A DNA stretch of 64,000 bases from a virus: the IMG/VR virus record IMGVR_UViG_3300043446_003177, positions 1 to 64,000 of that record, one strand, 5' to 3'. This document shows positions 14,633-40,857 of this stretch, piece by piece (position 1 is the stretch's first letter; every line of letters begins with the position of its first letter). The notes below the pieces were generated by a model, which was given only the letters and a program-made list of their open reading frames with translations, ran no database searches and was not told the origin of the DNA. The position numbers and the translations under genes are program-made.

Positions 14633-14832
14633 GTGAAGGATTTAATAATAATGAACTGAAAGTTACAGTTCATACCGATGAAGTTCAAAAAATTCTTAAA
14701 GATTATAAGAGAATTAAAAGATACATGAAATCCTCTATTTTTGAAGTCAAGAATATGGATGGAACTGAAAAAGTAGTTAAAAATTTGTTAAAACATTTAG
14801 ACGACAACAATGGGGAAACATTATCTTCTTAA
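14629..14832 (+). CDS. Hypothetical protein
   Basis: ATGA overlap with the upstream gene; 67 aa. Confidence 0.6.
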   Translation: MSEGFNNNELKVTVHTDEVQKILKDYKRIKRYMKSSIFEVKNMDGTEKVVKNLLKHLDDNNGETLSS

Positions 14833-15136
14833 CCTATATGGATGTTCGTTTGTTCTTTTGAACAACGAGCGTTGTCTTATTGACTTATTAGAGTGTGCAG
14901 CAGAAGCAAGCGGTGCTACTGTGGTTCAAACTATATCTAAAAAGTTTGAACCACAAGGAGTAACCGTTATTTGTTTGTTGTCTGAAAGTCATATTAGTAT
15001 TCATACATGGCCAGAAGAAGGTAAGGCAGCAGTAGATGTATATACCTGTGGCGATTGTAATCCAAAGATTGGATGTGATATGATCATCCATCAACTTTTT
15101 GCTACTAATCATACGTTAAGTTATATTGAGAGATAG
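14810..15136 (+). CDS. speD: S-adenosylmethionine decarboxylase proenzyme (class 1B)
   Basis: GKHYLLNLYGC, FEPQGVT, LSESHISIHTWPE (E|S pyruvoyl cleavage site) and AAVDVYTCG. Confidence 0.93.
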   Translation: MGKHYLLNLYGCSFVLLNNERCLIDLLECAAEASGATVVQTISKKFEPQGVTVICLLSESHISIHTWPEEGKAAVDVYTCGDCNPKIGCDMIIHQLFATNHTLSYIER

Positions 15137-15142
15137 AAAAAT

Positions 15143-15158
15143 TGTATCAGGAAATACA
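15143..15158 (+). promoter_or_regulatory. NtcA-type binding site
   Basis: TGTATCAGGAAATACA matches TGTA-N8-TACA and sits just upstream of a sigma70-like promoter. Confidence 0.65.
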
Positions 15159-15166
15159 CACAAAAC

Positions 15167-15195
15167 TTGCTATATAAGTTGAATAGGGGTATAGT
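15167..15195 (+). promoter_or_regulatory. Sigma70-like promoter
   Basis: TTGCTA-17 nt-TATAGT; the predicted start near 15202 lies just before the CGTTCA aptamer 5' strand. Confidence 0.55.
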
Positions 15196-15205
15196 AATCC
15201 CCTAA

Positions 15206-15510
15206 CGTTCATCCTATGACTAAAGCACTTTTGCTTTTGGCATGGGTTCCACTTCTTTCTGTCTCTACGCCACGACTTATTCAAAATCCATATCCTGTGA
15301 CTATAAGTTGTGACGCGGCGTGGGAACTAATGGACATCGTTAAAAACGACGATGTAGTTTATCAGAAAAAAGAAGACCAACTGCTATTAGAACTCCGAAA
15401 GGATGTTATTCAAAGGTGCTAAAATTAAATAGGACGCAAGTAGGACGGCGGAACGGATCGTTCATTCGCTATTCGCAAATAGCGAACGCAAACCGCCTGA
15501 AGGAACGGGA
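15206..15510 (+). ncRNA. Tandem glutamine riboswitch-like leader (glnA/Downstream-peptide family); first unit encloses an ORF
   Basis: Unit 1: CGTTCA(15206), TCCTAT/ATAGGA stem, CGCAAG, GGAACG(15450-55). Unit 2: CGTTCA(15459), perfect 9-bp hairpin TTCGCTATT-CGCA-AATAGCGAA, CGCAAA, GAAGGAACGGG(15499-509). Lies upstream of a DUF4278-type ORF. Confidence 0.75.
15216..15422 (+). CDS. Small protein (68 aa) nested inside riboswitch unit 1
   Basis: Signal-like hydrophobic N-terminus and C-x35-C; apparent paralog at 62437..62604. Confidence 0.65.
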   Translation: MTKALLLLAWVPLLSVSTPRLIQNPYPVTISCDAAWELMDIVKNDDVVYQKKEDQLLLELRKDVIQRC

Positions 15511-15539
15511 CTAACCATCTCATTCTGGAGGAATCCCCA

Positions 15540-15677
15540 ATGTCTAAAGTAGTTTACCGTGGCGTTGAATACGATACGCAAAAGCGTTTAGAGTATCAAC
15601 AGCAGATGATGCAACAACCCCAACAATACAACGAAACCTATCGTGGTGTTAAGTTTGTAAAGGAGGGGCATAAGTGA
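15540..15677 (+). CDS. DUF4278-type 'downstream peptide' (45 aa, Gln-rich); absent from the ORF track
   Basis: MSKVVYRGVEYDTQKRLEYQQQMMQQPQQYNETYRGVKFVKEGHK has two YRGV motifs; GGAGGA RBS at 15527-32. Confidence 0.85.
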   Translation: MSKVVYRGVEYDTQKRLEYQQQMMQQPQQYNETYRGVKFVKEGHK

Positions 15678-15778: not shown

Positions 15779-15808
15779 AGAGGGGGACTTGACTCCCCCT
15801 CTTTTTTT
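15779..15808 (+). terminator. Rho-independent terminator overlapping a sigma70-like promoter
   Basis: AGAGGGGGA...TCCCCCTCT hairpin plus T-run; TTGACT(15789)-17 nt-TAGAAT(15812). Confidence 0.8.
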
Positions 15809-15840
15809 GTGTAGAATTATCCTTGTCGAGGTTGATAAAA

Positions 15841-16080
15841 ATGGATAGAGAAAAGCTTAAGCTAATCATAAAAAACCTTGAGTCTCTTGTTGAATGTCTC
15901 AAATCAGAAGTTTATTCTGATGTTAACTCTTATAAACAAGATATGAGATATGAAGAAGTAGCTCCATATATTGATGATTATGATGAGATTTTTTATGATG
16001 ATGAAGGAGATGATGATTTATTCAAATCAGTAAATCAAAAGTATAAACTAACAAACGATGATGATGGAGACGGATTGTGA
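15841..16080 (+). CDS. Acidic hypothetical protein
   Basis: MDREKLKLIIKNLESLVECLKSEVYSD with a D/E-rich tail. Confidence 0.7.
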   Translation: MDREKLKLIIKNLESLVECLKSEVYSDVNSYKQDMRYEEVAPYIDDYDEIFYDDEGDDDLFKSVNQKYKLTNDDDGDGL

Positions 16081-16802
16081 ATCTAATTAACGAAGAATTT
16101 GAATTCATGAAACCAGAAGTAAAACTGATCAGCGTTACTCCTGATGCAGAGAAACATATGGCTTACTGTGCCCGAGTAAGTAATCCACAGAATCAGGAGA
16201 ATGAAAAGTTTTCTGGACTGCTCAAGTATTGCATTCAACATCAACACTGGAGCATTTTTGAGCAGGCAATGATGACGGTTGAGATCAATACTACAAGAGG
16301 TATCGCGGCTCAAATCCTTCGTCATAGGTCTTTTACATATCAAGAATTTTCACAACGGTATGCTGATACAAATCTTTTGAATAAGACAATTCCACTTCCA
16401 GAACTTCGTCGTCAAGATACAAAGAATCGTCAGAATAGTATCGATGACCTTCCTGATTATCTCAAACTTACCTTGCTTGAAGATATTCGCGTTCTCTTTG
16501 AGCACTCTCAGCGCCTCTACAATCGCCTTCTAGAGAAGGGAGTAGCAAAGGAGTGTGCAAGGTTTGTATTGCCCCTAGCGACGCCTACACGCCTCTATAT
16601 GACCGGTTCTGTGAGGTCATGGCTACATTATATCGATCTTCGATCTGCACATGGTACACAGAAAGAACATATGGAGATTGCAGAACTTATTCGTTGTATT
16701 TTTATCTGCCAGTTTCCTGCAGTTTCTGAAGCAATGGGTTGGGTTCGCGGAGATCATTGTGCTGATTGTGAAAGCGTTCAACCATCAGTTCGCATAGACT
16801 AA
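16077..16802 (+). CDS. thyX: Flavin-dependent thymidylate synthase
   Basis: RHRSFTYQEFSQRY ThyX signature, H.SIFE, ECARFVLP, TQKEH. True start may be 16107. Confidence 0.95.
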   Translation: MNLINEEFEFMKPEVKLISVTPDAEKHMAYCARVSNPQNQENEKFSGLLKYCIQHQHWSIFEQAMMTVEINTTRGIAAQILRHRSFTYQEFSQRYADTNLLNKTIPLPELRRQDTKNRQNSIDDLPDYLKLTLLEDIRVLFEHSQRLYNRLLEKGVAKECARFVLPLATPTRLYMTGSVRSWLHYIDLRSAHGTQKEHMEIAELIRCIFICQFPAVSEAMGWVRGDHCADCESVQPSVRID

Positions 16803-40019: not shown

Positions 40020-40090
40020 GCGGGCATGGTGTAGCGGTAACATCTGAGCCTTCCAAGCTCCAGTCACGGGTTCGATCCCCGTTGCCCGCT
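40020..40090 (+). tRNA. tRNA-Gly(TCC)
   Basis: GCGGGCA/TGCCCGC acceptor, CTTCCAA anticodon loop, GGTTCGATCC T-arm. Confidence 0.9.
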
Positions 40091-40110
40091 CTTACCTTTA
40101 ATGGTAAATT

Positions 40111-40293
40111 ATGAACTTAAAAGAACCTAGAGTTAAAACAACACCACAGAATGTAAAAGAAGCGAATGAAGCACTTTTTACAGCAAAATGGAATCTTCCT
40201 CAAGCGGCAAAGCATTGTGGAATGTCTCAAAAAGAAATGAAGTTGACCTTTTTTGAGTATTTGAAGTATAATCCTATCACCTACGAAGGGTGA
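40111..40293 (+). CDS. Small HTH-like hypothetical protein
   Basis: WNLPQAAKHCGMSQKEMK. Confidence 0.6.
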   Translation: MNLKEPRVKTTPQNVKEANEALFTAKWNLPQAAKHCGMSQKEMKLTFFEYLKYNPITYEG

Positions 40294-40299
40294 TTTCTT

Positions 40300-40383
40300 G
40301 GGGCGGTGGTGGAAGTGGTAGACACATCAGACTTAAAATCTGCTGGGAGTAATCCCGTGGGGGTTCAAGTCCCCCTCGCCCTA
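40300..40383 (+). tRNA. tRNA-Leu(TAA)
   Basis: GGGGCGG/TCGCCCT acceptor, CAGA-CTTAAAA-TCTG, long variable arm, GGTTCAAGTCC. Confidence 0.92.
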
Positions 40384-40430
40384 CTGGAGGTTTTTTTAAC
40401 CTCTAAATAAACAAAAGTAGGAAAAGTCCT

Positions 40431-40700
40431 ATGAAATACAAAATTGATACGGCATATTGCTGGTACAATAAAGGAACTCAAATAGTTCTTATGTATTTCA
40501 TAAATCATATTCCATTTACTTTTGACGACGTTCCTGATAGTTACCTATACGATTCGGAAGTCATAGAGTCGGCAGATAAGCAAAGACGCTTTGAACCAGA
40601 GGATTTATATAGATCATCATTCTATTTGATTGATGAACAATGTCATCCAATGTTGTTTGAGGTTGAACTGGAAAATCCAGAAATGTTACCTGTTGATTGA
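40431..40700 (+). CDS. Hypothetical protein
   Basis: 89-aa ORF between tRNAs, preceded by CTAAATA. Confidence 0.65.
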   Translation: MKYKIDTAYCWYNKGTQIVLMYFINHIPFTFDDVPDSYLYDSEVIESADKQRRFEPEDLYRSSFYLIDEQCHPMLFEVELENPEMLPVD

Positions 40701-40701
40701 T

Positions 40702-40773
40702 GCCCTTGTAGCTCAGTGGTAGAGCAACGGTTTTGTAAACCGTTGGTCGCTGGTTCAAATCCAGTCGGGGGCT
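40702..40773 (+). tRNA. tRNA-Thr(TGT)
   Basis: GCCCTTG/CGGGGGC acceptor, ACGGT-TTTGTAA-ACCGT, GGTTCAAATCC. Confidence 0.93.
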
Positions 40774-40776
40774 TCC

Positions 40777-40857
40777 GCCTGAGTGGTGGAATGGTAGACA
40801 CGCATGACTTAGGATCATGTGCCGCAAGGCGTGAAGGTTCAAGTCCTTTCTCAGGCA
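40777..40857 (+). tRNA. tRNA-Leu(TAG)
   Basis: GCCTGAG/CTCAGGC acceptor, CATGA-CTTAGGA-TCATG, variable arm GCCGCAAGGC. Confidence 0.93.

Follow-up and report, generated by a model that had tools for sequence, protein, structure and literature searches.

A conserved small gene inside the P2 helix of a predicted composite glutamine riboswitch in a marine cyanophage

Introduction

Riboswitch aptamers are usually treated as compact non-coding domains. Group I introns loop a homing-endonuclease open reading frame (ORF) out of a peripheral helix, as in T4 td with I-TevI. The Mg2+-sensing leader of Salmonella mgtA embeds the mgtL ORF, and the leaders of Mycobacterium tuberculosis B12 switches contain translated upstream ORFs. 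Here, we describe a locus in the first 64,000 nucleotides (hereafter, the window) of the IMG/VR virus record IMGVR_UViG_3300043446_003177, a 172-kb record of a T4-like cyanomyovirus (a marine cyanophage). At this locus, positions 15206-15507 are predicted to form a glutamine riboswitch whose P2 helix loops out a complete gene of 68 codons.

The closest described system is the glutamine-I riboswitch (RF01739), represented by the gifB leader of Synechocystis (PMC6212724) and the crystal structure 5DDP. In this aptamer, glutamine is contacted by the pairs C1:G59 and G2:C58 and by G22 (PMC6698751), and the two strands of the E-loop are GAAGUAA and UGAAG (PMC5393176). Glutamine binding switches gifB translation ON in Synechocystis, and both glutamine-I and glutamine-II are ON switches for DUF4278/IF17 genes, a study that also links DUF4278 to IF17 (PMC6212724). 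Tandem glnA RNAs are on record (PMC2864571), and a survey of 2017 counted no more than two glutamine aptamers among the genomes of phages (PMC5473149). The locus in the window shares with glutamine-I the CGUUCA strand, the P2 hairpin, ACG(G/C)AAGUA, P3 and GAAGGAACG, as well as the glutamine-contacting nucleotides, the place upstream of a DUF4278 (IF17-like) gene and a probable translational ON logic. It differs in that its P2 has a 211-nucleotide (nt) loop with a conserved protein gene and its P3 encloses a permuted second core, while its J2/3 junction has C for the second G and its score falls under the Rfam cut-off.

With ORF-bearing group I introns, the locus has in common a gene in the loop that caps a peripheral helix of a functional RNA, the presence or absence of the ORF among relatives, and occurrence in T4-type phages. 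In contrast to these introns, however, the element is no intron and nothing is spliced, the very small ORFs do not encode endonucleases, and the start codon lies in the closing helix. A search of 15100-15600 for intron families gave no match at E-values up to 10, by which a group I intron with a loop ORF was ruled out. The mgtA/mgtL and M. tuberculosis B12 leaders also contain a translated ORF in a sensing leader, where ribosome traffic and RNA folding interact; theirs encode short leader peptides and lie within the expression platform, whereas here a protein of 49-73 residues under purifying selection is encoded inside an aptamer helix. A leader-peptide or upstream-ORF attenuator, in which translation itself counts and the peptide is not conserved as a protein, was ruled out by a product of 68 residues, a ratio of nonsynonymous to synonymous divergence (dN/dS) of 0.32 and 251 homologue clusters. 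Tandem riboswitches, such as the glnA RNAs (PMC2864571) and the glycine aptamers, likewise have two ligand-binding-type cores and one expression platform, but their cores stand side by side with independent folds, whereas those of the window are nested and share a helix. We found no account in the literature of genes inside glutamine aptamers or of a nested double core, although an earlier mention of large P2 insertions is possible.

Frame of the riboswitch and its relation to glutamine-I

An initial annotation of the locus had described two units of one frame, CGTTCA-hairpin-CGCAA-GGAACG, with a whole ORF in the hairpin of the first. Reading of the sequence bore this out. CGTTCA (15206-15211) is followed by TCCTAT (15212-15217), and its partner ATAGGA (15429-15434), 211 nt away, is followed by CGCAAGTA (15435-15442) and GGAACG (15450-15455); after a GAT linker, the unit 2 frame occupies 15459-15507. 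The stem arms enclose the complete 68-codon ORF (15216-15422), whose ATG lies inside the 5' arm and is preceded by no Shine-Dalgarno sequence, the upstream bases CCCUAACGUUCAUCCU being without a purine-rich stretch. Six Watson-Crick pairs at two fixed positions, as seen in the P2a arms, are expected by chance with p ~2e-4. A further P2a extension of 10 base pairs (bp) has a duplex energy of -18.2 kcal/mol, compared with -12.7 kcal/mol for pairing with 3' ends taken from other loci. Both P2a helices were recovered when 15203-15545 was folded without constraints, with pair probabilities of 0.83-0.99 (0.92-0.99 for the extension), and the minimum free energy (MFE) fold of the locus contained outer P1 (15207-10 with 15503-06), P2a (6 + 10 bp), P3, inner P1 and P2b at -93 kcal/mol (z = -2.78). 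The coordinates of all features are collected in Table 1.

Table 1. Features of the riboswitch locus and its surroundings, in window coordinates
Feature	Position	Strand	Basis or detail
Sigma-70-like promoter	15167..15203	+	TTGCTA 15167-72, 17-nt spacer, TATAGT 15190-95
CGUUCA: outer P1 5' strand (CGUUC) and junction A	15206..15211	+	Sequence, Rfam consensus
P2a 5' arm UCCUAU, including the AU of the nested AUG	15212..15217	+	Pairing, covariation
Nested gene, 68 codons: hydrophobic N-terminus, Cys32, C-terminal Cys68	15216..15422	+	ORF list, homologues
P2a extension 5' strand AGCACUUUUG, codons 3-6	15224..15233	+	Duplex with 15411-15420
Internal hairpin within the nested ORF, 12 codons ELMDIVKNDDVV	15324..15360	+	Alignment, fold
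P2a extension 3' strand CAAAGGUGCU: last codons, C-terminal Cys codon, first base of stop	15411..15420	+	Duplex, fold
P2a 3' arm AUAGGA, starting 7 nt after the stop codon	15429..15434	+	Sequence, pairing, covariation
J2/3 of the outer core, CGCAAGUA	15435..15442	+	Rfam consensus ACGGAAGUA
P3 5' strand, common to both cores	15443..15451	+	Cross-unit covariation
Inner P1 hairpin GAACG-GAU-CGUUC	15451..15463	+	RNAalifold consensus, MFE fold
Inner-core hairpin P2b, UUCGCUAU-UCGCAA-AUAGCGAA, short in the window phage	15465..15486	+	Helix covaries
CGCAAA inner J2/3; CCGCCU P3 3' strand 15493-98; GAAG E-loop 15499-502; GAACG outer P1 15503-07	15487..15507	+	
Expression platform with Shine-Dalgarno GGAGG 15527-31	15508..15539	+	Predicted partly paired
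DUF4278 (IF17-like) gene, 45 residues	15540..15677	+	PF14105, phrog_5049
33-codon ORF overlapping the DUF4278 stop codon	15674..15775	+	ORF list
Intrinsic terminator, end of the small operon	15779..15810	+	9-bp stem (6 G-C pairs), then T run

Standard covariance searches miss this structure, as had been anticipated. An Rfam scan of the locus returned no riboswitch at the gathering thresholds, and in E-value mode the sole match was 15457-15511, with 31.1 bits against the RF01739 cut-off of 35 and with the outer register unmatched. The annotation would have been refuted if the element without its loop did not score as a glutamine aptamer. A natural relative without the ORF (locus L063), which we used as a stand-in for deletion of the P2a loop, does score as one. 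This relative, whose P2a hairpin is 14 nt long, is identical to the window across the 63 nt after P2a (the next base is a C/T difference) and scored 40.2 bits against RF01739, above the cut-off. Rfam aligned both L063 and a second ORF-less relative (L012, 43.6 bits, likewise above the cut-off) in the outer register, and a 99-nt riboswitch annotation in phage S-CREM1 spans this same register.

The individual elements of the aptamer can be traced in the window. The P1 strands are present (CGUUC at 15206-10 and 15459-63; GAACG at 15451-55 and 15503-07), and a P2 hairpin, with its loop of 211 nt, stands at the expected position between CGUUCA and ACG(G)AA. In J2/3, where glutamine-I requires CGGAAGUA, the window has CGCAAGUA, which keeps the equivalent of G22 (G15436) and replaces the next G with C as in glutamine-II; the AAGUA of this junction is the 5' strand of the E-loop. 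The sole UGAAG lies at 15498-15502, which restricts formation of the E-loop to the outer register. The glutamine-contacting C-G, G-C and G positions of the solved structures are retained at both junctions (PMC6698751), and C15206 and G15207 correspond to C1 and G2 among these contacts. The riboswitch RNA is predicted to bind glutamine.

An outer aptamer with a second core nested in P3

The two units had been taken for independent aptamers standing side by side, and this part of the initial annotation had to be abandoned, since across related loci a helix between the units covaries and the P3 hairpins within the units are mostly broken. In an RNAalifold consensus of 34 loci in which both hairpins are short, the two outermost strands, CGUUC of unit 1 and GAACG of unit 2, were paired with each other, and GAACG-GAU-CGUUC formed an inner hairpin. 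The covarying cross-unit helix joins the unit 1 segment after GUA to the unit 2 segment before GAAGG. In particular, its pair 39-84 was GC in 11 sequences, UA in 9 and AU in 3 with zero breaks, and its pair 32-92 was AU in 26, GU in 4 and GC in 3, whereas the two-pair P3 hairpins within the units were broken in 16 of 26 and 14 of 23 sequences. At some loci the units are too short for a P3 of their own, yet the change from AGUCG/CGACU to AGUCA/UGACU is seen there. Helix 5 (P2b) also covaries across the related loci. Furthermore, the E-loop strands are split between the units: unit 1 has AAGUA without UGAAG, and unit 2 has UGAAG without GAAGUA.

In the window itself, the P3 duplex has an energy of -10.2 kcal/mol compared with -5.8 kcal/mol for non-self partners, with pair probabilities of 0.27-0.44. 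Its 5' strand can be read in two registers, GGACGG (15443-48), which is homologous to that of other loci, or GGCGG (15447-51), which gives the best energy. The pair probabilities of the inner P1 were 0.67-0.77, compared with at most 0.02 for tandem-style P1 pairings. The comparative and folding results argue that the element is a single outer glutamine-I aptamer whose P3 encloses a second core. Because the cross-unit helix covaries and the within-unit P3 is broken, the nested ORF sits in P2 of the outer core, the P1 of which most likely closes 15206-10 with 15503-07.

Related loci and selection on the long-range stem

We scanned IMG/VR for the junction GGAACGGATCGTTCA and obtained at least 120 loci on phage contigs, 111 of which were parsed. 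The motif census required the GAT linker. Because two loci (L276 and L293) have GAA in place of GAU in the inner hairpin loop (GGAACGGAACGTTCA), the family is undercounted. S-PM2 is the nearest named relative at the riboswitch locus; both it and S-CREM1 have the same two-unit element with short hairpins, and DSL-LC02 has a 50-codon ORF in the other hairpin, with the ATG again within the 5' arm. Among the matches listed, unit lengths were bimodal (37-61 nt and 146-254 nt), and the P2b loop contained an ORF in about 50 related loci. Of the 82 long hairpins in the parsed loci, 32 occupied the first position and 50 the second, about 11 loci having both, and in every one of the 82 an ORF of 49-73 codons filled the loop. 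The nested ATG lies 9-13 nt into the unit in 81 of these hairpins, and the one exception carries its own AGGAGG. Some nested ORFs end before the 3' arm, as in the window, and others run through the arm into the core, where they stop at CGC-AAG-TAA or GAC-TGA-AGG. The short P2a of S-PM2 (L001:1769-1790) reads ATG-GGA-CGC-AAG-TAA, a frame of four codons whose TAA is shared with nested ORFs ending in IGRK; it may be the remnant of a lost ORF, or it may be due to chance.

A promoter of the type TTGACT-17-TATAAT was found in 93 of 108 distinct related loci, its -10 box ending 7-10 nt 5' of CGTTCA. Therefore, the RNA begins essentially at the riboswitch, which places the nested AUG only about 12-15 nt from its 5' end. 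In the window, the transcript is predicted to start probably at about 15202-15204.

Covariation of the arms in homologues had been proposed as a check on the long-range stem. Pairing of the TCCTAT/ATAGGA type is conserved in homologues. Covariation was seen across ORF families, over 49 distinct arm pairs, but not within the ORF family of the window, where there was none. For these 49 arm pairs, positions 1-6 of the P2 arms were 89.1% paired, compared with 69.1 +/- 2.2% (maximum 75.5%) after shuffling, and several Watson-Crick pair types occurred at positions 3-6. The insert ends (first and last 30 nt) gave -16.7 kcal/mol with their own partner, -10.6 kcal/mol with those of other loci and -9.1 kcal/mol with shuffled sequences, and the own partner was the best in 81 of 82 cases. 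These comparisons argue that the long-range P2 stem is selected. In the family of the window, the cells of the extension helix were 96% paired for the seven inner pairs and 63% for the three outer ones. A scan of bacterial genomes with a 15-mer of the junction was uninformative on hosts: among the matches listed, nearly all were due to chance and one was a real, phage-like locus.

At five loci (L030, L064, L079, L037 and L104), an extra element, ACGGATC-hairpin-AAAGG, lies 3' of unit 2 between the riboswitch and the Shine-Dalgarno sequence, where it may serve as one more unit, the third, or as another kind of expression platform.

The nested gene and its protein

The nested ORF begins at the first start after the stop in its frame (ATG 15216-15218) and ends with TAA at 15420-15422. 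Among 17 distinct members of its family, the mean dN was 0.14 and the mean dS 0.45, giving a ratio of 0.32. The variable sites at codon positions 1, 2 and 3 numbered 32, 21 and 49, respectively, and insertions and deletions were multiples of three. The protein collection contained 251 metagenomic homologue clusters, all of 66-69 residues and without a family name, and 36 positions were invariant among 38 homologues, C32 and C68 both being invariant. This pattern of change shows that the nested ORF is a real gene under purifying selection.

A search with the nested protein, which made no use of the RNA motif, confirmed 260 stretches coding for its relatives and returned 80 loci. Two of these loci were truncated at contig ends and left out; of the 78 that were complete, 77 had the frame CGTTCA-TCCTATG ... 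ATAGGA-CG(C/G)AAGTA, and the nested family is therefore known only from within riboswitches of this kind. The remaining locus was L312. There (L312:780-900), an ORF of the window type is directly followed by a second small ORF (MESIILTCLQ...) and the core between the hairpins is missing. The arrangement represents either a pair of genes sharing a loop or loss of the cores by deletion. The nested ORFs as a whole form three clusters, one of which occurs in both hairpins (P2a and P2b), and homology between the clusters was weak or absent (hhalign probabilities of 28%, 3% and 2%).

Searches of Pfam and PHROGs with the nested protein gave no family, and the protein atlas returned solely its own all-viral cluster. 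No match was obtained by tblastn of the 68-residue protein against the GenBank phages, a set that may omit records close to the window genome. AlphaFold modeled the protein with a mean predicted local distance difference test score of 68, as a helical hairpin with a low-confidence hydrophobic N-terminus. The RNA helix may impose part of the residue pattern of the protein, with its hydrophobic N-terminus and two invariant cysteines, as GCA-CUU-UUG is paired with CAA-AGG-UGC.

One stretch within the gene is unusually constrained. In the 12 codons ELMDIVKNDDVV (15323-15360), only 1 of 12 third positions is variable, compared with 49 of 71 overall (18 loci), and the RNA folds there into a hairpin of 13 bp (-10.7 kcal/mol, z = -2.9), which suggests a second constraint at the level of the RNA or the DNA. 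A block of the hairpin, GGAAC...AUCGUU, is loosely like the GGAACG-GAU-CGUUCA junction of the riboswitch.

A proposed coupling of glutamine sensing and translation

The strands that close the outer sensor are the nested start codon with the adjacent P1 strand on one side and the last codons of the gene on the other. We propose that 15206-15507 is one composite glutamine riboswitch, set a few bases from the start of an early-type transcript, in which folding of the sensor and translation of the nested gene are mutually exclusive and have opposite outputs on the DUF4278 gene, a proposal to which we give slightly better than even credence. In the folded state, an outer three-way junction would be built from P1 (15206-10/15503-07), P2a, J2/3 (CGCAAGUA), P3 (15443-48/15493-98) and the GAAG strand of the E-loop, and P3 would contain the circularly permuted second core made of the GAACG-GAU-CGUUC hairpin, P2b and CGCAAA. 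P2a (6 + 10 bp) would loop out the 68-codon gene, with the AUG in its 5' arm and the last codons as its far strand. A ribosome initiating at the nested AUG, near the 5' end and without a Shine-Dalgarno sequence, would cover the 5' strand of the outer P1 and the P2a arm. Termination at 15420 would open up the 3' side, so that P2a would be unzipped by each round of translation. Because the closing strands would be covered or unzipped in this way, the folded sensor and nested translation would exclude each other.

The riboswitch of the window is predicted to be a translational ON switch, probably following the logic of the Synechocystis gifB leader. Since the described switches are ON for DUF4278/IF17, the folded, glutamine-bound state would keep the nested gene silent and allow synthesis of the downstream peptide. 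Glutamine binding at P1 would favor this state, in which the GAAG-GAACG strand would be held in the aptamer and the Shine-Dalgarno sequence of the DUF4278 gene would be free. Low glutamine or co-transcriptional loading of ribosomes would favor the open state, in which the nested gene would be translated and the downstream gene dampened, and the released GAAG-GAACG strand could help to mask the Shine-Dalgarno sequence at 15527-31. In the MFE fold, a hairpin GGGA...UCCC surrounds this Shine-Dalgarno sequence, whose unpaired probability was 0.06-0.6. Nested translation may be limited to a co-transcriptional window or may be sustained by polysomes. Reciprocal control of the nested gene and the DUF4278 gene is, on this scheme, a plausible inference. 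We hold it possible, at somewhat less than even weight, that the nested gene is a working part of the riboswitch, which would then act as a two-state switch, possibly with memory, and that the P2 loops serve as exchangeable gene docks.

Several observations weigh against the proposed coupling or against parts of the structure beneath it. The equilibrium fold forms P2a without ligand and has the AUG already buried (unpaired probability 0.01-0.04), and thus the fold does not imply glutamine-dependent translation of the nested gene. A test for covarying anti-Shine-Dalgarno pairing was not significant (own partner -4.94 kcal/mol, others -4.89 kcal/mol). Because the ORF is present in the window and absent from the otherwise identical riboswitch of L063, it is dispensable for the switch. 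Arm covariation is lacking in the ORF family of the window, where P1 and the proximal arms are invariant and changes in the extension are one-sided and wobble-compatible. The cores of the window are off consensus, with C replacing the second G of CGGAAG in J2/3, and in the register homologous to other loci P3 contains an A.C mismatch. Finally, the P1 strands are invariant, and the choice between the outer and inner registers rests on topology, energy and the Rfam alignment, not on covariation.

The main rival to reciprocal control, which is compatible with it, is that the P2 loops are tolerant docks in which small phage genes are exchanged by recombination between the conserved cores; the closing helix would then only preserve the riboswitch after an insertion, and the nested gene would merely be co-transcribed, with no designed reciprocity. 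This is suggested by the occurrence in the loops of at least three ORF clusters that are not demonstrably related, by the presence of one cluster in both P2a and P2b, and by the identity of the cores with and without an ORF, the whole stem being swapped together between the window and L063. The -10 box of the promoter lies in a stem-loop, and its presumed likeness to mobile cassettes of T4-type phages points the same way. However, a passenger gene could start anywhere with a Shine-Dalgarno sequence of its own, whereas 81 of 82 ORFs start in the 5' arm without one. Furthermore, translation of many P2b ORFs would continue across the aptamer core to a stop in GAC-UGA-AGG, 7 nt short of P1, which makes physical interference with folding of the sensor unavoidable. 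We regard docking without reciprocity as unlikely, though as an explanation to be taken seriously. If the insert were instead a structured RNA domain with an incidental open frame, the strong pairing of its ends and the conservation of the internal hairpin at synonymous sites would be accounted for; the open frame in 82 of 82 inserts, indels in multiples of three, the dominance of third-position variation and the dN/dS of 0.32 make this scarcely credible.

Two further alternatives concern the sensor itself. The 211-nt insertion could have killed the 5' sensor and left only the inner, 3' part (15457-15511) to sense glutamine, with the flanking half-motifs kept as signals for initiation, processing or recombination. 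The Rfam match of 31.1 bits is confined to this part, and the tails of the window are 2 nt shorter than those of the closest ORF-bearing relatives. Tails shortened in the same way, however, are seen at loci without an ORF whose outer register passes the Rfam cut-off (L063, 40.2 bits). Furthermore, none of the 5' CGUUCA, the arms, J2/3 and the P3 strand is damaged, covariation across loci extends to both the arms and the cross-unit P3, and the 3' part by itself has no 5' strand of the E-loop; loss of the outer core is improbable in our view. It is likewise improbable that the locus consists of two independent tandem aptamers (15206-10/15451-55 and 15459-63/15503-07), each with a small P3, even though each unit contains CGUUCA ... 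CG(C/G)AA ... GGAACG, single units are matched by Rfam in relatives (DSL-LC02 unit 1, 35.6 bits; S-PM2 unit 2, 33.3 bits) and tandem glnA RNAs are known (PMC2864571). The within-unit P3 is broken (16/26 and 14/23) while the cross-unit pairs hold and covary, the units of some loci cannot accommodate a P3 of their own, neither unit has both E-loop strands (unit 1 is without UGAAG and unit 2 without GAAGUA), and the tandem-style P1 pairings do not exceed a probability of 0.02.

The locus is a sensor with helices spanning 200-300 nt, owing to the real gene inside one of them. If the coupling is real, the same nucleotides would serve in a natural device both to translate one gene and to sense a metabolite on behalf of another, and cyanophage infection would be tied to host nitrogen status via an IF17-like glutamine synthetase regulator. 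The nested protein and the IF17-like peptide would, if this is true, be expressed in opposite nitrogen states. The locus also exposes a blind spot of covariance-model annotation, as the riboswitch in the window is invisible at the Rfam gathering thresholds.

Promoter, neighboring genes and other observations

The -10 box of the promoter in the window forms the loop of an inverted repeat, AGGGG/CCCCT (15185-89 / 15199-203). The sequence is AGGGG-TATAGTAAT-CCCCT in the window and GGTCTATAATGACC or GTGTTAGTATTAACAC at other loci. We take this stem-loop to resemble the promoter-early stem-loops that border mobile gene cassettes of T4-type phages. Upstream, the riboswitch locus is bordered by speD (14810-15136; PF02675). 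The DUF4278 gene matched the Pfam family PF14105 with 19.1 bits, under the cut-off of 25.3, and phrog_5049 with E = 1e-10, and the PHROG matches of the 33-codon ORF behind it were weak. A second promoter of the same kind, TTGACT-17-TAGAAT (15789-15817), overlaps the terminator, and the downstream neighbor at 16077-16802 reads as a candidate ThyX-type thymidylate synthase. A PhotoRC-II RNA (RF01717, 57.1 bits) was found at L012:1021-1116, on the same contig as a short-hairpin version of the riboswitch. Elsewhere in the window, four transfer RNA genes are clustered at 40020-40857, with scores of 50-72 bits.

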